From a virus (lineage: Duplodnaviria > Heunggongvirae > Uroviricota > Caudoviricetes), in IMG/VR virus record IMGVR_UViG_2534681772_000012, positions 1 through 10,338 of that record: a stretch of DNA of 10,338 nucleotides. One strand, written 5' to 3'. Positions within the stretch are counted from its first letter, which is position 1; every line of letters starts with the position of its first letter. The position numbers and the translations under genes were made by a program. Positions 1 to 10,338 of this stretch are shown here, piece by piece. The notes beneath the pieces were generated by a model that worked only from the letters and a program-made list of their open reading frames with translations, made no database searches and had not been told where the DNA came from.

Positions 1-70
1 TCACAAAAACGTAACCACACTGCCAATAGCCAGAGAAATATAATTTTTTTTGCGATTTTTTAGAACTGAC

Positions 71-130
71 ACAACGTGAAACAACGAGACACCACGACGA
101 ACAACGGCGAACAATCTGGAACAAACTTGA
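71..130. repeat. Six tandem 10-bp units with ACAACG-like core (ACAACGTGAA/ACAACGAGAC/ACCACGACGA/ACAACGGCGA/ACAATCTGGA/ACAAACTTGA), helical-turn phased; putative protein-binding array upstream of alpA
   Basis: Read directly from sequence: units start every 10 bp from position 71. Function is inferred from the phasing and the position in the AT-rich leader upstream of the alpA-like gene. Confidence 0.4.
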
Positions 131-410
131 TTAACATCTGACTGACACCCTAAAAAGTTGATTTTCAGTCGTTTTACTGGCTTTTTGTACATTGGCGAAT
201 CACTCTTAAAAACATGTAAAAAAGGCGTAAAAACAGAATTTTATGCCTTTGCACCACAATGAATTAAAAGAGTTTTTATTCTCATTACCACACTTCTGTA
301 AAATGACCGCCGCCAGTGTTTGCCATTCCATAAACACCCTGACACAATCCGACGCACCACAACACAATAGGACACCAAATAACTCTTTAAGAAATATCAA
401 AGGGGGAATT

Positions 411-599
411 GTGTTAAGCACAGATCGCTTTATACGTGAAAAAGAATGTCAGCAACTTACAGGCCTGAGCCGTTCATGTCGGTACCGCCTGGAAAAAACC
501 GGACAATTCCCATCACGGCGTAAGCTCGGCGGTCGTTCCGTTGGCTGGTCTTTATCCGAAGTTCTGGCATGGAAGGAAAGCTGCGAGGCAGTTCACTAA
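411..599 (+). CDS. alpA: AlpA-family (phage Vis/Xis-like HTH) transcriptional regulator
   Basis: C-terminal 63 aa of ORF 243..599 (MLSTDRFIREKECQQLTGLSRSCRYRLEKTGQFPSRRKLGGRSVGWSLSEVLAWKESC) match the AlpA/Vis family length and HTH pattern. GTG start at 411 follows RBS AGGGGG (401-406); the in-frame extension back to 243 has no RBS and looks like leader. Stop TAA 597-599. Confidence 0.8.
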   Translation: MLSTDRFIREKECQQLTGLSRSCRYRLEKTGQFPSRRKLGGRSVGWSLSEVLAWKESCEAVH

Positions 600-651
600 T
601 CAGGCTGGCGGCACACCGCCGCCACCCATCCACTAATACAGAGATCTAACC

Positions 652-1842
652 ATGAATACTGGATATTCTCCCGAACAAGGGCGGGGCTTCGTTCGTCCTG
701 AAAAACAGAATCTGCAAAATTTTGCCGAAATTATTCCGGTTATTTCCGGCCTTACTGGCGGGAGTGAAACCAATATTGTTAACGCCAGAGCGTTGCAGAT
801 GTTTGATGATAAAAAGGGAGTAAATTTAACTTACACCCCTGACGGCAATCAGAATATGAGCATTATCTCTGAGTCAGGTTTCTACAAACTAATAAAAACA
901 AAAAGCGCCCCGTTCCCGGAGCGCCTTTGTGAACAATTAACCTACTGCGCAAAAAATGAATCTGAGCAGTGGGATTATATCAACCGTGTGGCGAAGCGCC
1001 ACAATTGCCGGATAACAGGCAAAACAAAGGCCACCCGCTACGGTGGCCCCTCGACACAAGCTACACGTTATCCCCAACGCATGAGCATCACCAACAATGC
1101 CACATTTGCGGCTGGTGGGCAATGTGATCAGTCAGATTTGGTTCGTTCCAAGGTTTGCAACGAGAGCTTTTTCCTGTGCTCTTTAAGGAATTTCTCAAGA
1201 GCAAAAGCACATGGCGCGAATCTTTCTGATTCATGCTCTATCTTTCTGCGCCGTCTTTTCCGTGCCGGTGATAATGTTTTGGTCAATTCTTTATCGGTCA
1301 TTGTGTTGTCCTGCATAGCAATGCGCCGTAATACCTTACACCACGGCGCTGATGGTGATTACTCTGGTTCTTTGGTCTTGCGACGCTGGAGTTCTTCGCG
1401 TGCAACGGTGACAAGCTGCCCGATTTCTTCCGCTGCTTTGATGCCGATTTGTTCGACCTTAGCCAGGGCATCCAGTGACGACACAAGGGGATTTTCTCCG
1501 CTGCCTTCTGCTTGGCGGCGGGCTATTTCTCCGCGCATGGCGGTTACGATAAATCCGGCATTGCTTTCGCCGTCCAGCTTAACGGATTCCATCCCTTGCA
1601 TAACATCTAGTGGGACTCTGACAGTTGTCAGTTGTGATTTTGCGTTTTTGTTAGCCGTTGCCATTTCTGAAACTCCTAATCATCGGTGTGTTTCAGTATA
1701 CACAAAAAAAGAAATACAAAAAGCCTTGACGTGTGTTTCATGCGCTCATAACATGAAACACACCAAAAGAATTGTTGAAATACAAAGAGCAACGCCCCGC
1801 AGTGCCGGAAACACATACGGGGCGTCTAACCACCAACGATAG
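652..1842 (+). CDS. Questionable ORF; at most an N-terminal remnant (~652-900) of a disrupted gene, faintly Bro-N/Rha-like (IISESGFYKLI)
   Basis: ATG-to-stop ORF from the track. After ~aa 90 the translation is Ser/Cys/Arg-rich, as expected for an antisense read. It runs antisense to two protein-like minus-strand ORFs and through two minus-oriented terminator hairpins. No convincing RBS before ATG 652. Confidence 0.2.
   Translation: MNTGYSPEQGRGFVRPEKQNLQNFAEIIPVISGLTGGSETNIVNARALQMFDDKKGVNLTYTPDGNQNMSIISESGFYKLIKTKSAPFPERLCEQLTYCAKNESEQWDYINRVAKRHNCRITGKTKATRYGGPSTQATRYPQRMSITNNATFAAGGQCDQSDLVRSKVCNESFFLCSLRNFSRAKAHGANLSDSCSIFLRRLFRAGDNVLVNSLSVIVLSCIAMRRNTLHHGADGDYSGSLVLRRWSSSRATVTSCPISSAALMPICSTLARASSDDTRGFSPLPSAWRRAISPRMAVTINPALLSPSSLTDSIPCITSSGTLTVVSCDFAFLLAVAISETPNHRCVSVYTKKEIQKALTCVSCAHNMKHTKRIVEIQRATPRSAGNTYGASNHQR
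891..924 (-). terminator. Putative rho-independent terminator for minus-strand transcripts
   Basis: GC-rich imperfect hairpin 905-924 (GCGCCCC/GGAGCGC, one mismatch) followed on the minus strand by TTTTTGTTTTTATT (reverse complement of 891-904). Confidence 0.4.
1021..1048 (-). terminator. Putative rho-independent terminator for minus-strand transcripts
   Basis: Perfect 7-bp stem GGCCACC (1029-1035) / GGTGGCC (1042-1048) with a 6-nt loop, followed on the minus strand by TTTGTTTT (reverse complement of 1021-1028); about 80 nt downstream of the stop of minus ORF 1128..1301. Confidence 0.45.
1128..1301 (-). CDS. Small basic hypothetical protein (~57 aa, MTDKELTKTLSPARKRRRRK...)
   Basis: Minus ORF 1128..1316; the second in-frame ATG (1301) has a weak AGGA-like RBS. 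Lies just downstream of the RHH-like regulator and upstream of the minus-strand terminator. Composition is protein-like but there is no recognisable family. Confidence 0.3.
   Translation of the reverse strand: MTDKELTKTLSPARKRRRRKIEHESERFAPCAFALEKFLKEHRKKLSLQTLERTKSD
1359..1664 (-). CDS. Putative ribbon-helix-helix-like DNA-binding regulator (candidate repressor of the island), 101 aa
   Basis: Strong RBS AGGAG 8 nt upstream of ATG (minus 1677-1673). Balanced protein-like composition; N-terminal beta-strand-like TTVRVPLDV followed by helix-loop-helix (MQGMESVKLDGESNAGFIVTAMRGEIARRQ) resembles the RHH/Arc-MetJ fold. Divergent from the rightward operon promoter, the classic regulator position. 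Confidence 0.6.
   Translation of the reverse strand: MATANKNAKSQLTTVRVPLDVMQGMESVKLDGESNAGFIVTAMRGEIARRQAEGSGENPLVSSLDALAKVEQIGIKAAEEIGQLVTVAREELQRRKTKEPE
1686..1763. promoter_or_regulatory. Divergent promoter/operator region: sigma70-like promoter TTGACG (1726-1731) - 17 bp - TAACAT (1749-1754) for the rightward operon, overlapped by a perfect 12-bp inverted repeat GTGTGTTTCATG (1731-1742) / CATGAAACACAC (1752-1763); a third GTGTGTTTCA half-site at 1686-1695; leftward -10-like TATACT (complement of 1696-1701)
   Basis: Hexamers and repeats read directly from the sequence; assignment as operator for the adjacent regulator is inference. Confidence 0.5.
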
Positions 1843-1861
1843 CAAGATTATCGAGGCTGCT

Positions 1862-2068
1862 ATGAGAAATCATACCATACACCCGCAAGGGCGGGACTCG
1901 CACAACCTGAATAAATACATCTGGCGTTTTATCGCCCTGAGTACGGCACAACCGCGCGTGATTACCATTGAGGCCACCAGCGAACAGGAAGCCCGTCAGC
2001 AATCACCGGCTGGCTGCGTGATGGTATTCGCCGCCCGTATTCGTCAGGGGGTGCACCATGTGCAATAA
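1862..2068 (+). CDS. Small protein, probably Icd-like (host cell division inhibitor Icd-like family of P4-type satellites)
   Basis: ATG 1862 with GAGG RBS; the track ORF uses an upstream TTG at 1772. Motif pattern YIWRF-ALS...EATSEQEAR...FAARIRQ matches my memory of Icd-like proteins. Stop overlaps the next start (ATGTGCAATAA). Confidence 0.5.
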   Translation: MRNHTIHPQGRDSHNLNKYIWRFIALSTAQPRVITIEATSEQEARQQSPAGCVMVFAARIRQGVHHVQ

Positions 2069-2525
2069 CACCCGTCCGGACGCAGCCGCCGAAGCAATCA
2101 AAACACTGATTGATGCGCTGATTGATATTTCTGTTATCGCGGACAGGGCGCATAAGCACGCTACCAGTGAAACAGAATATGCCGGGGCTTTCGTTCCTCA
2201 TTCGCTGGCGGTTATGCAACTTAGTGCGGATATGGCGCTGAATGAGGCCAAAGCCATCCTGATTGCTGATTGTGAAAATGGGGGGGGGGTTATGCGTGAT
2301 GATCGTTTTAATTCCCTGAAACAGGAATTTTCCGGCGTTCCTGATGATGCGGCTGATGCGCTTTCGTCAATGCCAGAGCTTATTAGAGCGGCTTTTTTCT
2401 TACTTTCCACGAGAGAATATAAATCAACGGGGCTTGATGTACTGAATATCGCCGCCGATTATGCGGAATATGTGGCAGAGGCGCGTTACAGAAGAAAATT
2501 TCCTGAGGATGTAAGCCATGCGTGA
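2058..2525 (+). CDS. Hypothetical protein (155 aa) containing an internal G10 homopolymer
   Basis: ATG 2058 preceded by AGGGGG RBS; translationally coupled to neighbours on both sides. No recognisable family. G10 run at 2280-2289 encodes GGG and is followed by an in-frame ATG at 2292. Confidence 0.55.
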   Translation: MCNNTRPDAAAEAIKTLIDALIDISVIADRAHKHATSETEYAGAFVPHSLAVMQLSADMALNEAKAILIADCENGGGVMRDDRFNSLKQEFSGVPDDAADALSSMPELIRAAFFLLSTREYKSTGLDVLNIAADYAEYVAEARYRRKFPEDVSHA

Positions 2526-2751
2526 TATTTACCACGAAACAATAGACCGCGCATTTCTTGCACTTTCTCACAGTGAAAACATGCTGGAAATATTGCGCAT
2601 ATGGCTTGAAACACTTGGCGACAATGAACGCGACAAACAAAAATCAAGAATTGCCACGGCATTAATAACGCTTCTTGAGCCTGTAATAATGGAACTGCAA
2701 GAAATAGATCTATTGCACGACAGATATAAAGAACAGCACACCGGAGAATAA
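2518..2751 (+). CDS. Hypothetical protein (77 aa)
   Basis: ATG 2518 overlaps the upstream stop by 8 nt; GAGGA RBS; protein-like composition; no recognisable family. Confidence 0.55.
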   Translation: MRDIYHETIDRAFLALSHSENMLEILRIWLETLGDNERDKQKSRIATALITLLEPVIMELQEIDLLHDRYKEQHTGE

Positions 2752-2756
2752 AAATA

Positions 2757-3056
2757 ATGAAACTTAAATATTCTGGCTTAACTGCCAGTGGCAACACTCA
2801 CCCTAAATTTACGCGCGGTGATATTTACCGCGACCAGTACGGCGGCACGGTAATGATTAAGGGCGTGGAAGAACGGCGCGTAATCTACCGCCGTGAAGGT
2901 TACGAATATGATTGCGTGATGCCTGTTTATCAGTTCCGGTGTGATTTTTCTCTGGTACAGACCGCGCCGCATAACGTGCCCACCAGCAACGCCAGGGCAC
3001 GGGCAAACATCCAGAAGCTGAAAACCATGATTAACGGATTCAGGGGCAAGAAATGA
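2757..3056 (+). CDS. Hypothetical protein (99 aa)
   Basis: ATG 2757 with GGAG RBS; stop overlaps the rep start (ATGA at 3053-3056); no recognisable family. Confidence 0.55.
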   Translation: MKLKYSGLTASGNTHPKFTRGDIYRDQYGGTVMIKGVEERRVIYRREGYEYDCVMPVYQFRCDFSLVQTAPHNVPTSNARARANIQKLKTMINGFRGKK

Positions 3057-4468
3057 AAAGCGCACCGAACTTAAAAAAACAGCCTTACGACAAAATGACC
3101 GAAGTCATTATTTTTGCGGGTAGTGATGCCTGGGCGCACGCGAAACAATGGCAGGAGCAGGACGGGCGACTTGCTGGCGACAATGTTCCGCCTGTATGGC
3201 TGGGAGACAGCCAGCTTGACGAACTGGCAGGCCTGAAAATTATCGACGATGGTCGCTATTGTGTCCGACTGTACAAGGCAGGCCACATCAAGCCGTCAAA
3301 TATTAATGCCATCGGGCAAAAGCTGGCGGCGGCAGGTGTACGGGATGCGAATTATTACCCTGAGGGAATGCACAGTCAGAAGCTGGAGAACTGGCACGAC
3401 TACCTGCAACGGATCCGCGAACAGGCAGAGCGCGGGGAAATACTTACTGACGAGCAATACAGCCAGCGAAAAACCACGCTACCAATGAGCATTGGATCTG
3501 CAGGGTACGACACACAGCTTGATTATGTCGTTAAGGGCGTGATTCCGGCTAATTCATTGTGCAGCACATACGGCGCGAGCGGTTCCTATAAATCGTTCCT
3601 CGCGTGTTCCTGGGCGTGTCATGTTGCCACGGGTCGCCACTGGGGAGGTCGCAGGGTGGCGCATGGTTCGGTGATGTATGTTGTCGGTGAAGGTGGCATT
3701 GGTGTCCCCCGCCGTATCAAGGCATGGGAAATCGTTAATGATGAACGGGTGAAAAATCTGTACCTGGTAAACCGCCCGATTTTTCCTGCAGCCCAGTTTG
3801 ATGTTGATGAAATGGTTATCGCATCCCGCCAGGTTGAACGGGAAACGGGTAAACCGGTACGCATGATTATTCTGGATACGCTGGCGCGTTGCTTTGGCGG
3901 TAATGATGAAAATGACGCGCGGGATATGGGGGCGTTTATCCGTGGATGTGACGAACTGAAACGACGCACAGGGGCCACGGTGCTGGTGGTTCACCATTCC
4001 GGCAAGGATGAAACAAAAGGGGCGCGTGGTTCCAGTGCATTTCGTGCATCTCTGGACGCTGAGTACCGGATCCGCCGCGAAGGCGCGGACAGTGAGGCCC
4101 TGGTTATCTCCTGCACCAAAATGAAGGACGCGGAGGAACTGAAAGAGGCTGCATATGATTTACGTGTGGTGGAGCTTTTTACCGACGCTGACAAGGAGTT
4201 AATCACGTCGCTGGTGGTTGTGGATAAGCCGCGCCCACCCGTTGAACTGGAGCGCATCGAGGAGGCCGGAAACAAGACGGAGAATCACGCCGCACTATGG
4301 GGCTGTATCCGGTCACGCACACAGCGCGGCGATAAATGCACTATCCCGTTGTTGCGCGATGATATGAAAAAGCTGGGGTATGAGATGAAAAACTTCCGGC
4401 GCTGGCTGTACAAGCTGGAAAGAGACGGCGTTATCGCTATTGACGGTGATGATGTGCGCCCACTGTAA
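3053..4468 (+). CDS. Replication initiator / RepA-like RecA-fold (AAA_25-type) ATPase, 471 aa; no primase domain recognised
   Basis: Walker A-like GASGSYKS and Walker B-like hydrophobic run ending in D (RMIILDTL) in the central region; RBS AGGGG; an iteron array follows the stop codon immediately, as in PICI/SaPI-type pri-rep/ori units. Confidence 0.8.
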   Translation: MKSAPNLKKQPYDKMTEVIIFAGSDAWAHAKQWQEQDGRLAGDNVPPVWLGDSQLDELAGLKIIDDGRYCVRLYKAGHIKPSNINAIGQKLAAAGVRDANYYPEGMHSQKLENWHDYLQRIREQAERGEILTDEQYSQRKTTLPMSIGSAGYDTQLDYVVKGVIPANSLCSTYGASGSYKSFLACSWACHVATGRHWGGRRVAHGSVMYVVGEGGIGVPRRIKAWEIVNDERVKNLYLVNRPIFPAAQFDVDEMVIASRQVERETGKPVRMIILDTLARCFGGNDENDARDMGAFIRGCDELKRRTGATVLVVHHSGKDETKGARGSSAFRASLDAEYRIRREGADSEALVISCTKMKDAEELKEAAYDLRVVELFTDADKELITSLVVVDKPRPPVELERIEEAGNKTENHAALWGCIRSRTQRGDKCTIPLLRDDMKKLGYEMKNFRRWLYKLERDGVIAIDGDDVRPL

Positions 4469-4669
4469 AAAGTGAGGCGCAAAAGTGAGGGGATAGCAGG
4501 AACTGAACAAAAAGCAACCGCGCCCCTCACTTTTCAATCTGTATATAGGCTCAAAAGTGAGGAATAAAAAACACATTGAAAAACAACATATTAGAATCAC
4601 AAAAAAACAAGGTTGGAAATCATGTGGGGAGCTTAAAAAGTGAGGCGAAAAAGTGGGGAGTAGTGGGGA
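4467..4669. repeat. Putative origin of replication: iterons (consensus AAAAGTGAGG) flanking an AT-rich core
   Basis: Copies at 4467-4477, 4481-4490, 4523-4534 (inverted), 4553-4562, 4635-4645, 4647-4657 (degenerate), plus degenerate 4621-4630 and 4661-4668; AT-rich stretch 4563-4620; directly 3' of rep. Confidence 0.6.
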
Positions 4670-4921
4670 ATGACCAGAAAAAGCAGAGATAAAACAGCAC
4701 CAAAATATCGCGCATTAGACATGACAGAGCACGCCTTAAAGGTGGCAATCAGAACGATAGACCGCCACGCCGGAGAAGGATACGCGAAAGCGCATCCCGA
4801 ACTGATAAGCGCATTCATGACCACGGCGGCGGCAAATTTTGCCACACTGACAGAACGGGAGATTGCCGAAGCGGAACAGGTGACAACCATCAACGTTAAA
4901 ACCGGAGAGCAGACAGCATGA
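4670..4921 (+). CDS. Hypothetical protein (83 aa), translationally coupled to ssb
   Basis: ATG 4670; stop TGA overlaps the ssb ATG (ATGA at 4918-4921); no recognisable family. Confidence 0.5.
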   Translation: MTRKSRDKTAPKYRALDMTEHALKVAIRTIDRHAGEGYAKAHPELISAFMTTAAANFATLTEREIAEAEQVTTINVKTGEQTA

Positions 4922-5340
4922 CAGCACAGATAGCGGCTTACGGGCGGCTGGTGGCTGACCCGCAGTTAAAGACCACCAGCAAGGGTACACAAATGACGAT
5001 GGCGAGTATGGCGGTCCCACTTCCGTGCAGCCAGGCAGATGACGGAACGGCGACGATGTGGTTATCCGTCCTGGCGTTTGGCAGACAGGCCGAAGCACTG
5101 GCAAAGCACCGCAAGGGTGAACTCCTGAGCGTGGCGGGTAACATGCAGGTAAGCCAGTGGACAGGCCAGAACGGCGAAACGCGGCGGGGCTGGCAGGTTA
5201 TCGCAGACAGCGTAATCAGTGCGCGAACGGCGCGACCGGGCGGCAAAAAAGGTCAGCAGGGGCAGGCCACTGACGCACTGAACAGGGCAAAACAACAGTC
5301 GGGGAATGATGATCCGTACGGCGATAATATACCGTTTTAA
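4918..5340 (+). CDS. ssb: Single-stranded DNA-binding protein (short, 140 aa)
   Basis: GGAGA RBS; OB-fold-like N-terminal pattern; Gly/Gln-rich linker; acidic C-terminal tail ...DDPYGDNIPF resembling the SSB signature DDDIPF. Confidence 0.65.
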   Translation: MTAQIAAYGRLVADPQLKTTSKGTQMTMASMAVPLPCSQADDGTATMWLSVLAFGRQAEALAKHRKGELLSVAGNMQVSQWTGQNGETRRGWQVIADSVISARTARPGGKKGQQGQATDALNRAKQQSGNDDPYGDNIPF

Positions 5341-5357
5341 ATTCTGCAAACAAAAAG

Positions 5358-5386
5358 ATGCCGGAAAAAAATAGATTTTCCGGCAT
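5358..5386. terminator. Hairpin with 11-bp perfect stem (ATGCCGGAAAA / TTTTCCGGCAT, 7-nt loop); terminator-like, T-tract only on the minus-strand side
   Basis: Read directly from the sequence, 18 nt after the ssb stop. On the minus strand it is followed by CTTTTTGTTTG; on the plus strand there is no T-tract. Confidence 0.4.
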
Positions 5387-5551
5387 GCTACATAAATCCC
5401 GACCAAAGGAAGTAAATACATTAACACGAATTATCAGCACTGAAGTTGTCACGGCATATTTTATACAACATTGCACTTGGTTGCATGTATTCGCATAGCA
5501 GACATCGGTAATAGAATATATTCACAATTATTTGTAATGAATGTAAAGAGG

Positions 5552-6598
5552 ATGAGTATGGTTGATTTATATTCGCCTACACAGCTTGTGCAGGTGGCTA
5601 ATGCTGAAGATGTGCAAAAAAAATTAAATGCGTTGTTTACCAGTTTGTTTTTCACTCGCTCGGTAATGTTTGAATCGAGAGACATTATTCTTGATACGAT
5701 CGACGATCCAAATATCCCGATCGCGGCGTTTTGCTCTCCTATGGTGGGCAGTAAAGTTTCACGAGATGAGGGATACGAATCAAAAACAATTCGCCCTGGC
5801 TATATGAAACCGAAAAGCAGCATTGATCCAAATAAGTTAGCTGTGCGCCCTGCTGGTGTATCACCTGAACAATACAATGCTTTTGGGGCGCGTAATATTA
5901 AAGTTAAACAGGCGATTGTAAATCAGGCTAAAGCTATACGTGCACGTATTGAATGGCTTGCTGTTCAGGCAATCACAACGGGGAAAAATATCATTGAGGG
6001 CGATGGTATTGAACGTTATGAACTGGACTGGAATATAAAACCACAAAATATTATCACGCAGTCTGGCGGTGCTGAGTGGTCAGGTAAGGATAAAGAAACT
6101 TTTGATCCAAATGATGATATTGAGAGCTACGCAGAATTTAGTGAGGGCGTCACTAATATCATCATTATGGGCGGTAATGTATGGAAGAAATACCGTTCAT
6201 TCAGAGCGATAAAAGAGGCTCTGGATACCCGCCGTGGTTCTAATTCCGAACTGGAAACGGCCCTTAAAGACCTTGGTGATTCGGTGAGTTTTAAAGGGTA
6301 TATGGGCGATGTTGCGATTGTTGTTTACAGCGGACGTTATACCGACGAGGACGGAACTGAAAAACATTTCCTTGATCCTGATTTGATGGTGCTTGGCAAT
6401 ACGGCTCTTCAGGGGATTGTCGCCTATGGCGGTATTCAGGATCCGGAGCTAACCCGAATGGGGCTGACTAAAGCCGAACTTGCACCGAAAAACTATATTG
6501 TGCCTGGTGATCCGGCTATTGAGTACGTACAAACGCACTCTGCACCACAGCCAATACCGGCCCGCATCAATCGTTTTGTTACCGTTCGCATTGGCTAA
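5552..6598 (+). CDS. Lambda gpE-like major capsid protein
   Basis: Translation from MSMVDLYSPTQL aligns along its length with my memory of lambda gpE (MSMYTTAQLL..., ITQSGG-EWS-DK-T-DP-DDIE-YA, TRRGSNSELETA-KDLG, GDVAIVVYSG-Y, MVLGNT, GDPA). Start 5552 by homology; ATG 5558 has better RBS spacing from AAGAGG. Stop TAA 6596-6598. Confidence 0.85.
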   Translation: MSMVDLYSPTQLVQVANAEDVQKKLNALFTSLFFTRSVMFESRDIILDTIDDPNIPIAAFCSPMVGSKVSRDEGYESKTIRPGYMKPKSSIDPNKLAVRPAGVSPEQYNAFGARNIKVKQAIVNQAKAIRARIEWLAVQAITTGKNIIEGDGIERYELDWNIKPQNIITQSGGAEWSGKDKETFDPNDDIESYAEFSEGVTNIIIMGGNVWKKYRSFRAIKEALDTRRGSNSELETALKDLGDSVSFKGYMGDVAIVVYSGRYTDEDGTEKHFLDPDLMVLGNTALQGIVAYGGIQDPELTRMGLTKAELAPKNYIVPGDPAIEYVQTHSAPQPIPARINRFVTVRIG

Positions 6599-6607
6599 GG
6601 GGGAGCA

Positions 6608-6850
6608 ATGGCTACTCATTACACTGAACTCATGTCTGGCACTGAAGCACTGGTTACTACGCTGGGGATATTTTCAGCCAATAAAGGGGTAATACCTGCG
6701 TTTACGCCACTGATGCAGGAAGATGCAACTGGTGCGCTAGTGGTATGGGATGGAACGAGCGCAGGCAAAGCGGTTTATGTTTCCGCTGTACAAATCGACA
6801 CTGAACCGCCCCGGGAATCCTGGAGACTAAACTCCCTGAGAAAGAGGTAA
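6608..6850 (+). pseudogene. Lambda gpD-like head decoration protein gene, 3'-truncated by IS629-like insertion
   Basis: RBS AGGGGGAG; TPLMQEDATGALVVWDGTSAGKAVYVSAV matches the lambda gpD region [29 protein letters not shown]. Homology ends at 6801, where the IS inverted repeat begins; the last ~16 codons of the ORF are IS-derived. Confidence 0.7.
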
Positions 6851-6855
6851 ACAGG

Positions 6856-7182
6856 ATGACTAAAAATACTCGTTTTTCCCCCGAAGTCCGTCAGAGGGCG
6901 ATTCGTATGGTTCTGGAAAGTCAGGGCGAATATGACTCACAGTGGGCGGCAATTTGTTCCATTGCCCCAAAGATTGACTGTACACCGGAGACTCTGCGTG
7001 TCTGGGTACGCCAGCATGAGCGGGATACCGGAGGCGGTGATGGCGGGCTCACCACCGCTGAACGTCAGCGTCTGAAAGAGCTGGAACGTGAAAATCGTGA
7101 ACTGCGCCGCAGTAACGATATCCTTCGCCAGGCTTCCGCTTATTTTGCGAAGGCGGAGTTCGACCGCCTCTGGAAAAAGTGA
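6856..7182 (+). CDS. IS3-family transposase OrfA (HTH/leucine-zipper part), IS629-like
   Basis: 108 aa, [30 protein letters not shown]...[36 protein letters not shown]; ends at the frameshift window. Confidence 0.9.
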
Positions 7183-8069
7183 TGCCACTGCTGGATAAGC
7201 TGCGTAAGCTGTACGGGGTCGGACCGGTATGCAGTGAACTACATATTGCCCCGTCAACGTATTACCACTGTCAGCAACAGCGACATCATCCTGATAAACG
7301 CAGTGCCCGTGCGCAGCGCGATGACTGGCTGAAGAAAGAGATACTGCGCGTATACGATGGGAATCATCAGGTATACGGTGTGCGTAAAGTCTGGCGTCAG
7401 TTGTTACGGGAAGGAATCAGGGTAGCCAGATGTACAGTGGCGCGCCTCATGGCGGTTATGGGACTTGCCGGTGTTCTCCGGGGTAAAAAGGTCCGCACTA
7501 CCGTCAGCCGGAAAGCCGTTGCCGCAGGCGACCGCGTAAACCGTCAGTTTGTGGCAGAACGTCCTGACCAGTTGTGGGTGGCTGATTTTACTTACGTCAG
7601 CACATGGCAGGGGGTCGTCTATGTGGCGTTCATCATTGATGTGTTTGCCGGATACATCGTGGGGTGGCGGGTCTCATCGTCTATGGAAACGACATTCGTG
7701 CTGGATGCTCTGGAGCAGGCGTTATGGGCCCGTCGACCGTCCGGCACAGTCCATCACAGTGATAAAGGTTCTCAGTATGTATCGCTGGCCTACACACAGC
7801 GGCTTAAGGAAGCCGGATTACTGGCATCAACAGGAAGTACTGGTGACTCGTATGACAACGCGATGGCGGAGAGCATCAATGGCCTTTACAAAGCGGAGGT
7901 AATACACCGTAAGAGCTGGAAAAACCGGACAGAAGTGGAACTGGCCACACTCACGTGGGTGGACTGGTATAACAATCGACGATTGCTGGAAAGGCTGGGC
8001 CATATCCCACCGGCAGAAGCAGAAAAAGCTTATTATGCTTCCATCGGAAACGATGATCTGGCAGCCTGA
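7179..8069 (+). CDS. IS3-family transposase OrfB (DDE catalytic domain), IS629-like; expressed as OrfAB fusion by -1 frameshift
   Basis: 296 aa with DDE-type motifs ([31 protein letters not shown]); overlaps orfA in the -1 frame. Confidence 0.9.
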
Positions 8070-8123
8070 GTTCACAGATAAAACACTCTCCAGGAAACCC
8101 GGGGCGGTTCACAAAGTGTTTTT

Positions 8124-9698
8124 TCATCGCACACCGCCTTTTTCCTGATGAAAGCGGCAACGAGCAATCACGGATTGAATTTCAAATTGTGTGGTTTCAT
8201 GGATTGAAATAAGTGGATTGCGGGCGTTACCAACACTGTCTGAAATGGAAATCAATTCATCGACTTCTTTAACTACACTCTCCAGCACCGCCTGATGGTC
8301 ACCATCAGTAAAGGGGCGGAAATACAGGCAACCGTAGCAGCAGCGTACTTCACTGAATGGGCATTTGCCATCATCTCTGGAGCAACCGCCAATCCCATCA
8401 TGCAACTCATCACCGATTATGCCGACCACGCGCTGGTCTTGCCATTTCGTTGAAGAGGTCAGTTCACCAGTCAACATCATAGCCACCATGTTTTGCCATA
8501 CCGGATTGATACCCAATGCTTTGGCTCGAATCAGTGCCAGTGCAGGCGTCGCCAGAATGTAATACTTGGCAACAGTAAGGGAGCTATGTCCCAGAATATG
8601 CGCAATTTCCTCGGCGCTGACCCCTTGCATAGCCAGTGAATGCCCCACGTTGTGGCGCAAGTCGGTCGGGGTAATGGTTGGCAAAGCCGCTTCGCCACGC
8701 TTTACGGCTGCCTGATAATCTGGCGGACTGAAACAGAGGAAGGCCTTGTTAATCGCTCTGGACACATTAAACGGTGCAGAGTTACTAAATTCAAATAGCT
8801 TGCCATCAGGTTTTAGTTGCGCTCGCTCGATATAGTGCCTAATCAACGCGCCGATTTCAGCTGGAATCGCCAAAAACAGACGTTCAGTCGTTACGTGCCG
8901 CTGTTTGGCGTAAGGAAGGAGTAAGCTATATCGTATTAATCCGGTTTCGGAGTTTCGGGTATCAATACGTAAATCTTTTACCGCCAGCTTGGCCAGTTGT
9001 ACCGGTCGGGCACCGGTGACATACGTCAGTCCCAGAATTACTGCATCTCGCATGGTGTTCAGACTGTAGTTTTCGCCATACCGAATCGCCACAGCCATTT
9101 CAAACAAGCCTTTACTGATCATGTTTTTTTCGAGGGGATCCAGAACATGATCAATTTCCTGATAGATTCCCCAGTCATGGGAGTGCGGGCGAGGGATGAA
9201 TTCGAGGTCTTCATAATCTTCGAGGGTAAAACCAGGGAATGCTTCGGTACAGAGGATTTTTAGGCCGAAAATGATAAAGTAGAAATATTGAGGTTTAATT
9301 TCCTGAGTTTCGAGGTAATCTTTCAACACCGTAAAAGTGAAAGCAGATTTGCTTATGCAATGATCAGTTGCCAAAGACCACGCATGGAGTACCCCAGGAA
9401 CCTGAGCTGGACACTTGGCAGATGCATAATGGAAGCAAATATATTTGATTAATTGGTTGCTGATTTTATCCTGACGAAAGTGGGCATAGCAGCGGCTTCC
9501 TGAATAATCGAATACCCAACTGTCACTTGTTGAGCTGATATATTTGTCATCAAAATGATCTGCCGATTTAAGATAAATACTAACTGGTATATTAACCTTT
9601 AAAATACTCTCAACAAATACAGGTGTGTAAATGTTGCTGTTCGACGCATTTAACTGTTTATTGATTCGACTCATATGCACTCCATTCATCGCATACAT
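8124..9698 (-). CDS. Tyrosine recombinase / phage-integrase-family protein, large (516-524 aa) with Cys-rich C-terminal region
   Basis: Catalytic-motif pattern in the central part: GARPVQLAKL (Arg box), DLRHNVGHSLAM (H-x-x-R), LGHSSLTVAKYYI (His/Tyr nucleophile box). The best RBS (GGAG) precedes the third in-frame ATG at 9674, so the true start may be 9674. Stop is 12 bp from the IS629 end. Confidence 0.75.
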   Translation of the reverse strand: MYAMNGVHMSRINKQLNASNSNIYTPVFVESILKVNIPVSIYLKSADHFDDKYISSTSDSWVFDYSGSRCYAHFRQDKISNQLIKYICFHYASAKCPAQVPGVLHAWSLATDHCISKSAFTFTVLKDYLETQEIKPQYFYFIIFGLKILCTEAFPGFTLEDYEDLEFIPRPHSHDWGIYQEIDHVLDPLEKNMISKGLFEMAVAIRYGENYSLNTMRDAVILGLTYVTGARPVQLAKLAVKDLRIDTRNSETGLIRYSLLLPYAKQRHVTTERLFLAIPAEIGALIRHYIERAQLKPDGKLFEFSNSAPFNVSRAINKAFLCFSPPDYQAAVKRGEAALPTITPTDLRHNVGHSLAMQGVSAEEIAHILGHSSLTVAKYYILATPALALIRAKALGINPVWQNMVAMMLTGELTSSTKWQDQRVVGIIGDELHDGIGGCSRDDGKCPFSEVRCCYGCLYFRPFTDGDHQAVLESVVKEVDELISISDSVGNARNPLISIHETTQFEIQSVIARCRFHQEKGGVR

Positions 9699-10085
9699 GG
9701 GAAAAGGTTGATTTCAGGGCTTCGTTATCAATCACAATTCGCTGAAGATTGGCCGTATTAGCCTGCTGAGATAGAAATCTTTTAGCGTAAAGATCAGGCA
9801 TATGGCTATTGTGACTCCAACCGCCAAGTAGCCGTAATTCATCCTTGGCTTCATCCATCAATCCAACGATAGAAAAGTCTATGGCTGCCAAGTGTGAGTT
9901 GGCCTTAATTTTTTGAAGTTTATCACGATAAATACGTTGAAGTGTTAAATAAGCCCAAGTATGCCGCGTTATATGAGGCGAGATGCTTTCAATGGCATCA
10001 TAATATTCATCTTTTTTATATTCAGGATACTGCACACTCATAATGTCATCAATACGGGTAAAGATATCATAGACTGCATGGTATG
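9658..10085 (-). pseudogene. C-terminal catalytic fragment of a second tyrosine recombinase, 5'-truncated by IS2
   Basis: PHITRHTWAYLTL (H-x-x-R box) and LLGGWSHNSHMPDLYAKRF (His...Tyr box) present; N-terminal domains absent. The first ~9 codons of track ORF 9658..10113 (MSGDSGGQS) are encoded by the IS2 terminal repeat. Its 3' end overlaps the start of the downstream recombinase. Confidence 0.65.
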
Positions 10086-10338
10086 TAGACTGGCCCCCTG
10101 AATCTCCAGACAACCAATATCACTTAAATAAGTGATAGTCTTAATACTAGTTTTTAGACTAGTCATTGGAGAGCAGATGATTGATGTCTTAGGACCGGAG
10201 AAACGCAGACGGCGTACTACACAGGAAAAGATCGCTATTGTTCAGCAGAGTTTTGAACCGGGAATGACGGTCTCCCTTGTTGCCCGGCAACACGGTGTGG
10301 CAGCCAGCCAGTTATTTCTCTGGCGCAAGCAATACCAG
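10086..10338 (+). mobile_element. IS2 (IS3 family) left end, partial; continues beyond the window
   Basis: TAGACTGGCCCCCTGAATCTCCAGACAACCAATATCACTTAAATAAGTGATAGTC... matches my memory of the IS2 terminal repeat and leader; followed by the IS2 orfA start. Confidence 0.85.
10177..10338 (+). CDS. insC: IS2 transposase OrfA (InsC-like), 5' partial at window edge
   Basis: ATG 10177; translation [54 protein letters not shown]... matches IS2 OrfA as I recall it; ORF open to the window end. Confidence 0.8.

Follow-up and report, generated by a model that had tools for sequence, protein, structure and literature searches.

Large deletions linked to copies of IS629 have been described for Escherichia coli O157, in which IS629 inserted at new sites and its copies then recombined with one another, giving deletions of 53–63 kb, with both the parental and the deleted strains in hand (PMC3064760). 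Two previously described mobile elements are of direct relevance to the locus considered here: the Gram-negative PICI EcCICFT073, whose capsid-like and head-decoration genes are c1499 and c1500 (PMC6092414), and the genomic island GInt, which carries the genes ginABCD and has three integrases (PMC5385486).

The stretch of DNA analysed here (the window, 10,338 nucleotides) constitutes the last 10,338 bases of the draft contig AIHG01000005.1, which ends inside an IS2 element. The same arrangement is present in a contig of a sister assembly (AIHF01000013.1, 718 kb), which continues 6.6 kb further. The truncated left part of a satellite, a complete IS629-like element and the remains of a recombinase module follow one another in the window, and comparisons were made with related genomes, principally the closed genome of the enterotoxigenic (ETEC) strain TW10590 (NZ_CP035850.1), which has been described as PacBio-sequenced (PMC6446980), and with complete E. 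coli genomes, 5426 of which were covered by the searches. With some reserve, we lean towards reading the IS629-like element as the scar of an IS-mediated deletion, in which a second IS insertion was followed by recombination between direct copies.

The element at the centre of this arrangement comprises the following features:

6802..8111, plus strand, complete IS629-like element of the IS3 family, 1310 bp, with imperfect terminal inverted repeats at 6802-6826 and 8087-8111
6856..7182, plus strand, orfA (108 aa, HTH; Pfam HTH_Tnp_1, E = 4e-12)
7137..7253, plus strand, ALIL frameshift-stimulating pseudoknot over the orfA/orfB overlap (Rfam RF01497, full length, 116.2 bits, E = 2.6e-30)
7179..8069, plus strand, orfB with the DDE transposase domain (Pfam rve, HTH_21, rve_3 and rve_2), in the -1 frame and overlapping the orfA stop

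This is a genuine IS and not a chance resemblance. Its termini, as read from the sequence, are TGAACCGCC at 6802 and GGCGGTTCA at 8111, with 5'-TG...CA-3' ends, and alignment of the terminal inverted repeats shows agreement at 23 of the first 25 positions. The pseudoknot scores 116 bits against an Rfam gathering score for ALIL of 50 bits, and the frameshift site consists of the lysine codons AAA AAG followed by TGA (7174-7182). The OrfAB fusion of 404 aa spans 6856-8069, a 404-aa product is called in the contig from which the window was taken (L006), and identical copies of the IS elsewhere carry the annotation 'programmed frameshift'. The element has remained intact and is presumably still active. 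Fully identical (100%) copies are found in the chromosomes and plasmids of several ETEC strains, and its nucleotide identity to two O157 copies annotated as IS1203 family is 95.04% and 94.81% (65–68 substitutions, no gaps). In IS naming, an iso-form has at least 95% nucleotide identity to the reference. By these identity values the element is a variant bordering on IS629 iso-form status, for which the name 'IS629-like' is fair; the NCBI pipeline names it only 'IS3 family transposase'. The target duplication of 3–4 bp that characterises the IS629 group is absent from the window, where the flanks are CAC and CAA, because of the later rearrangement, and its absence is therefore no argument for assignment to another IS family.

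The sequences immediately adjacent to the element are as follows:

6608..6801, plus strand, 5' fragment of a gpD-like head-decoration gene (64 codons and 2 nt of a 113-codon gene; Pfam HDPD, residues 4-65)
6799..6801, no strand, CAC, the left flank of the IS and the new joint, read from the sequence
8112..8114, no strand, CAA, the right flank of the IS and one copy of the 3-bp target duplication of an older insertion, from comparison with TW10590 and strain 97.3

A preliminary description of this DNA had the IS cutting the gpD-like gene after about 64 codons, between flanks (CAC and CAA) that form no clean target-site duplication, with the 3' end of an oppositely oriented recombinase gene to its right and the stop of that gene 12 bp away. 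Each of these points is borne out: the fragment extends over 64 codons and 2 nt of the 113, the two flanks read as given, and the convergent recombinase gene on the minus strand has its stop codon at 8124-8126, 12 bp off the IS end. The decoration fragment reads into the IS to form an 80-aa fusion ORF with its stop at 6850. An intact 113-aa decoration gene is present in TW10590 and in strain KSC1031, and around the point of the joint it reads ...GACAC followed directly by AGCGAAAAAA. The earlier view of the IS as a rearrangement joint also holds, its flanks lying 197 kb apart in the closest closed genome. A simple IS insertion, the signs of which had been named as a complete remainder of D together with a target-site duplication, is ruled out, as the 3' part of the decoration gene is found neither in the window nor in the 6.6 kb by which the sister contig extends beyond it, and the flanks are unequal.

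To the left of the joint, the window contains the following satellite genes in addition to the decoration fragment:

1..43, plus strand, 3' end of the satellite integrase gene (int), the tail of which translates to HKNVTTLPIAREI followed by a stop
411..599, plus strand, alpA-like regulator (PF05930 Phage_AlpA; gene at 3804-3992 of L006)
3053..4468, plus strand, RepA-like helicase, a replication gene of the pri-rep type (Pfam AAA_25, E = 3e-44; annotated in TW10590 as helicase RepA family)
4918..5340, plus strand, SSB gene (PF00436 SSB; annotated in TW10590)
5558..6598, plus strand, lambda gpE-like major capsid gene (Pfam Phage_cap_E, E = 1e-41)

In its gene content this satellite fits a PICI of the EcCICFT073 type; a search of its proteins against NCBIfam returned no family above cut-off. 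A complete 10-kb island is found in TW10590 between abgR and smrA, with the gene order int, alpA-type HTH, icd-like, small ORFs, DUF4222, RepA-like helicase, ssb, capsid, decoration, HTH, terS and a small ORF, and an intact satellite occupies the same site in strain KSC1031. In both of these strains a 26-bp direct att repeat is present at both ends of the island, and in the lineage of the window only the left copy is present. The first position of the window corresponds to position 12001 of L001 (TW10590), inside int (10814-12043); int and attL are located just upstream of the window, next to abgR, and an intact 409-aa int is present in the contig containing the window (L006) and in TW10590. 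The proposal that the distal part of the satellite had been removed, possibly including int and att, consequently stands in part: the 3' part of the decoration gene, the HTH gene, terS, the small ORF and attR are gone, but int and attL have been kept to the left of the window, and loss of the satellite int is ruled out.

Some further features of the satellite and its relatives were observed. The att repeat, CGGTGTAGTTAATGGTGTAGTTAATT (L001 10767-10792 and 20976-21001), has an internal tandem duplication of GGTGTAGTTAAT. On the plus strand of the window, 652-1842 contains a 396-aa ORF without a Pfam match, lying over an opposite-strand gene of the YlcI/YnfO family (1359-1664); it is called in both draft contigs and is unannotated in TW10590, and is therefore probably spurious. 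A poly-G tract between two small satellite ORFs (2279-2288) has 10 residues in the window, 11 in TW10590 and 9 in the sister draft. At the length seen in the window, the two ORFs become a single one of 155 aa (2058-2525); either a sequencing error or a genuinely variable tract could account for the difference. In the sister assembly (L005 2210-3189), the satellite int is split into ORFs of 103 aa and 218 aa by two single-A deletions in A-runs, probably as a result of homopolymer sequencing errors. Finally, E. coli O157:H7 7.1_Anguil carries a related satellite between roxA and phoQ (L012 11007-12856) with an IS629-type element inside terS, both halves of which are present, so the packaging end of this island family has been struck by the IS629 group more than once.

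To the right of the joint, the following features are found:

8112..8127, minus strand, first 16 nt of a ginC-like gene (788 aa), all that is left of it, from comparison with strain 97.3
8124..9674, minus strand, ginB-like tyrosine recombinase gene, 516 aa, intact (Pfam Phage_integrase, E = 2.6e-10), belonging to a four-gene operon conserved in many genomes
9658..10085, minus strand, 3' part of a ginA-like tyrosine recombinase gene (466 aa when intact), interrupted by IS2 (weak Pfam Phage_integrase match)
10086..10338, plus strand, left end of IS2, read from the sequence, the contig stopping 253 bp in

In strain 97.3 the operon is intact, its overlapping genes (L004 6216-11947) having products of 466, 516, 788 and 144 aa; the ginA-like gene extends over 10547-11947, and the 788-aa gene starts at 9016, overlapping the stop of the 516-aa recombinase gene. 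Matches to Phage_integrase in Pfam are obtained for the first two products and none for the last two, and NCBIfam yields recombinase matches for these proteins at sub-threshold level only, with no family above cut-off. By gene order, gene sizes and Pfam matches, the module fits the GInt pattern. An element of the SE type (intA-tfp-intB-srap) is ruled out, the order of the operon being that of GInt.

The operon is found beside hipA, filamentous prophage genes, a DeoR/glycosyl-hydrolase locus and a prophage, and also on a plasmid. Its first cargo genes (HTH, a 186-aa ORF, HTH, an Rv2179c-like exonuclease, JAB and ThiF) were seen to be the same in at least four different chromosomal settings, as well as on a plasmid. 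Directly beyond the ginA end in TW10590 (L003 12856-19974) there are filamentous-prophage genes (Zot-like, secretin, DUF2523 and a replication protein of the II/X family), apparently in two copies. The ginA end of the island in strain 97.3 faces hipBA, a neighbour of dif, and the locus may therefore be the dif region.

The presence of IS2 on the other side of the recombinase module, as previously described, is confirmed (10086-10338), but its proposed share in the rearrangement is not. The complete IS2 in the sister contig (L005 13479-14809) has GTATG on both sides and the ginA-like gene resumes beyond it, which makes it a simple insertion with a 5-bp duplication. IS2 as a partner in the rearrangement is ruled out by this clean duplication together with the split gene continuing across it.

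Comparison with related genomes, which had been put forward as a means of reconstructing the ancestral arrangement, was made possible by TW10590, the closed genome of which shows that arrangement, although the ancestor itself may not have matched this strain exactly. Positions 1-6801 of the window correspond to 4,008,948-4,002,147 of TW10590 on the minus strand, exactly except for a 1-nt difference in poly-G length, and positions 8112-10085 to 3,803,826-3,801,853, also on the minus strand, at 100% identity. The IS of the window is identical at 1310 of 1310 positions to the TW10590 copy at 3,803,827-3,805,136. That copy is a simple insertion (...gcgCAA-IS-CAAagtg) located 13 nt into the ginC-like gene, the third in the operon, and the corresponding empty site in strain 97.3 reads ...ctgcgCAAagtg. 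The CAA of the right flank is unmatched in the window because it is left over from the duplication of this older simple insertion, which is still intact in TW10590. The satellite and the GInt-like island lie 197 kb apart in TW10590 in the same orientation, and the window is equivalent to TW10590 minus 3,805,137-4,002,146 (197,010 bp), with a single IS at the joint. Among the 5426 complete E. coli genomes, the right junction was found in one (TW10590), the left junction in none and the whole window in none.

In TW10590 a second, 100% identical copy of the IS lies in inverted orientation 15 kb from the ginC copy (3,820,216-3,821,525; L007 15217-16526). Adjoining this second copy is a corA-ysgD fragment that is out of place and has pseudogenes and IS1 on its flanks, which suggests further IS-driven shuffling of the region.

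The deletion by recombination that we favour would have started from the state shown in TW10590, in which the IS is present as a simple insertion with a CAA duplication in the ginC-like gene and a complete PICI is located 197 kb off. A second copy of the same IS would then have entered the decoration gene at ...GACAC in direct orientation, and homologous recombination of the RecA type between the two identical direct copies would have deleted everything between them. The outcome would be one hybrid IS, its CAC flank stemming from the new site and its CAA flank from the old one, the loss of 197,010 bp relative to TW10590, and two mobile elements unable to excise.

As the window derives from a draft contig, the concern about misassembly raised earlier is still valid. 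A chimeric assembly, in which the strain has independent simple insertions in the decoration gene and in ginC and the left flank of one was mis-joined to the right flank of the other through a collapsed repeat, would be consistent with a draft contig that ends within another IS, with a lineage containing many identical IS copies (a multi-copy 1.3-kb repeat being prone to mis-joins), with the homopolymer differences among the assemblies and TW10590, which are possible sequencing errors, and with the fact that the join is present in no complete genome out of 5426. We nevertheless hold it to be improbable, since the same join occurs in two separately assembled genomes, the 718-kb sister contig resolves the neighbouring IS2 with its correct duplication, and the ORFs expected from unjoined flanks are not on record, even though the ginC-remnant ORF is recorded for TW10590. 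The 80-aa fusion ORF of the left junction is on record in three contigs only within the collection searched, and is also listed under a protein accession with a different prefix; exact-sequence look-ups, which cannot prove absence, returned no record of the fusion ORFs between the IS and the 3' part of the decoration gene (75 and 69 aa), nor of the 718-aa ginC-remnant ORF outside TW10590. The AIHG and AIHF contigs and TW10590 differ in homopolymer lengths only, differences which may be sequencing errors, and by this measure their source strains are very close. Even a genuine join could arise without loss of DNA, if the segment had been excised as a circle or moved and then reintegrated via another IS copy, or if several inversions had taken place, so that the DNA is still in the genome. 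The many identical IS copies on the chromosome and plasmids would offer landing sites for it, but the ginC remnant, which would be expected to travel along with the segment, is on record for TW10590 only, and more events are needed than for a deletion; we find such a rearrangement very improbable. A single inversion cannot produce the joint, as the flanks keep their relative orientation, and it is ruled out by both being collinear on the same strand of TW10590.

A deletion could also have been produced in one step, driven by the transposase and possibly assisted by the IS-excision enhancer IEE, if the resident IS in ginC had used its left end to attack a distant target on the same chromosome, in the decoration gene, so that no second copy ever existed. 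In its favour, compared with TW10590 nothing but the left flank is new, the IS as a whole and its right flank being the same; reports exist of IEE-associated deletions that extend from the ends of IS629, with 'sloppy' strand transfer as the explanation; and iee occurs in ETEC. The two-step route predicts an intermediate in which the decoration gene carries an IS between two copies of CAC, and neither the 5426 complete genomes nor exact-sequence look-ups yielded one. This also agrees with a single step, but such a gap is weak evidence for a lineage sampled by few assemblies. Moreover, the copy-out-paste-in mechanism of the IS3 family is not expected to delete donor DNA, as is noted in a review, and the IEE-associated events described there are, as far as can be seen, small and plasmid-borne. 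We consider this one-step route unlikely. The two routes are indistinguishable at the joint itself because both IS copies would have been identical, in which case recombination leaves no internal trace.

The interval that separates the two flanks in TW10590 contains three kinds of DNA. Its satellite part consists of the 3' part of the decoration gene, the HTH gene, terS, one small ORF and attR; its core part comprises about 160 kb of terminus-proximal genes, from smrA via paa, trg, narZ, fdn and gadBC to ydeP; and its island part includes ginC, ginD and cargo genes, among them nucleotidyltransferase, HNH, ThiF and JAB genes. The nucleotidyltransferase, ThiF and JAB genes of the cargo hint at an anti-phage defence system. 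The Trg, PaaK and FeaB alleles of the interval occur only in TW10590 and are uninformative as a test of its presence. We know of no essential gene within the interval, and deletions of the terminus region of E. coli were reportedly found to be viable by Henson and Kuempel in 1985. We regard it as probable that the loss is real and heritable, that a natural diarrhoeagenic E. coli clone is thus short of about 197 kb in the terminus region just beside dif (some 180 genes, among them gadBC, narZ, fdnGHI, ldhA, trg and the paa operon), and that one IS event immobilised both a satellite and a GInt-like island and removed the cargo of the latter.

For annotation purposes, the decoration fragment, the ginC stub and the split ginA are pseudogenes that should be marked as such. 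In this lineage, neither the satellite nor the recombinase island should be regarded as a functional mobile element; they are best seen as immobile remnants, and both are dead ends because the satellite is without attR and terS, and the island is without ginC and ginD and has its ginA split. If the loss of 197 kb is true, it constitutes a sizeable natural case of an IS reducing a genome beside the replication terminus, and would be a useful clonal marker for an ETEC-related lineage. IS-driven deletion joints in E. coli are well documented, and the event is of a kind already known, with no new mechanism; it is mildly unusual only in the size of the inferred loss (197 kb beside the terminus) and in the truncation of two unrelated mobile elements by one event.

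In conclusion, each component of this locus has a described counterpart. The IS shares with IS629, IS1203 and IS3411 of the IS3 family a length of 1310 bp, TG...CA ends, overlapping orfA and orfB, a -1 frameshift, the ALIL pseudoknot and a 3-bp target duplication, the last seen for the identical copy in TW10590, but it is only about 95% identical to the O157 copies. The island resembles the Gram-negative PICI of the EcCICFT073 type (PMC6092414) in having int, alpA, pri-rep and capsid-like and decoration genes, a size of about 10 kb and flanking direct repeats; it differs in possessing terS, which EcCICFT073 is without, and the copy in the window differs further in being a non-mobile stump lacking attR, terS and a complete decoration gene. 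With GInt (PMC5385486) the recombinase module has in common two tyrosine recombinases of the catalytic type, a large 'hypothetical' third gene, a small fourth gene, overlapping reading frames, a position at an island end and variable cargo, whereas the copy in the window has lost ginC and ginD and has an IS2 splitting its ginA.

The joint as a whole is closest to the internal IS629-mediated deletions of O islands 43 and 48 in E. coli O157:H7 (PMC3064760), in which one IS is likewise left at the joint with tens of kb gone, and an integrative island is likewise truncated with its integrase end kept. The parental state is provided here by a related strain and not by the same isolate, and, unlike in those deletions, the inferred loss is approximately three times larger (197 kb) and takes in core chromosome lying between two different mobile elements.
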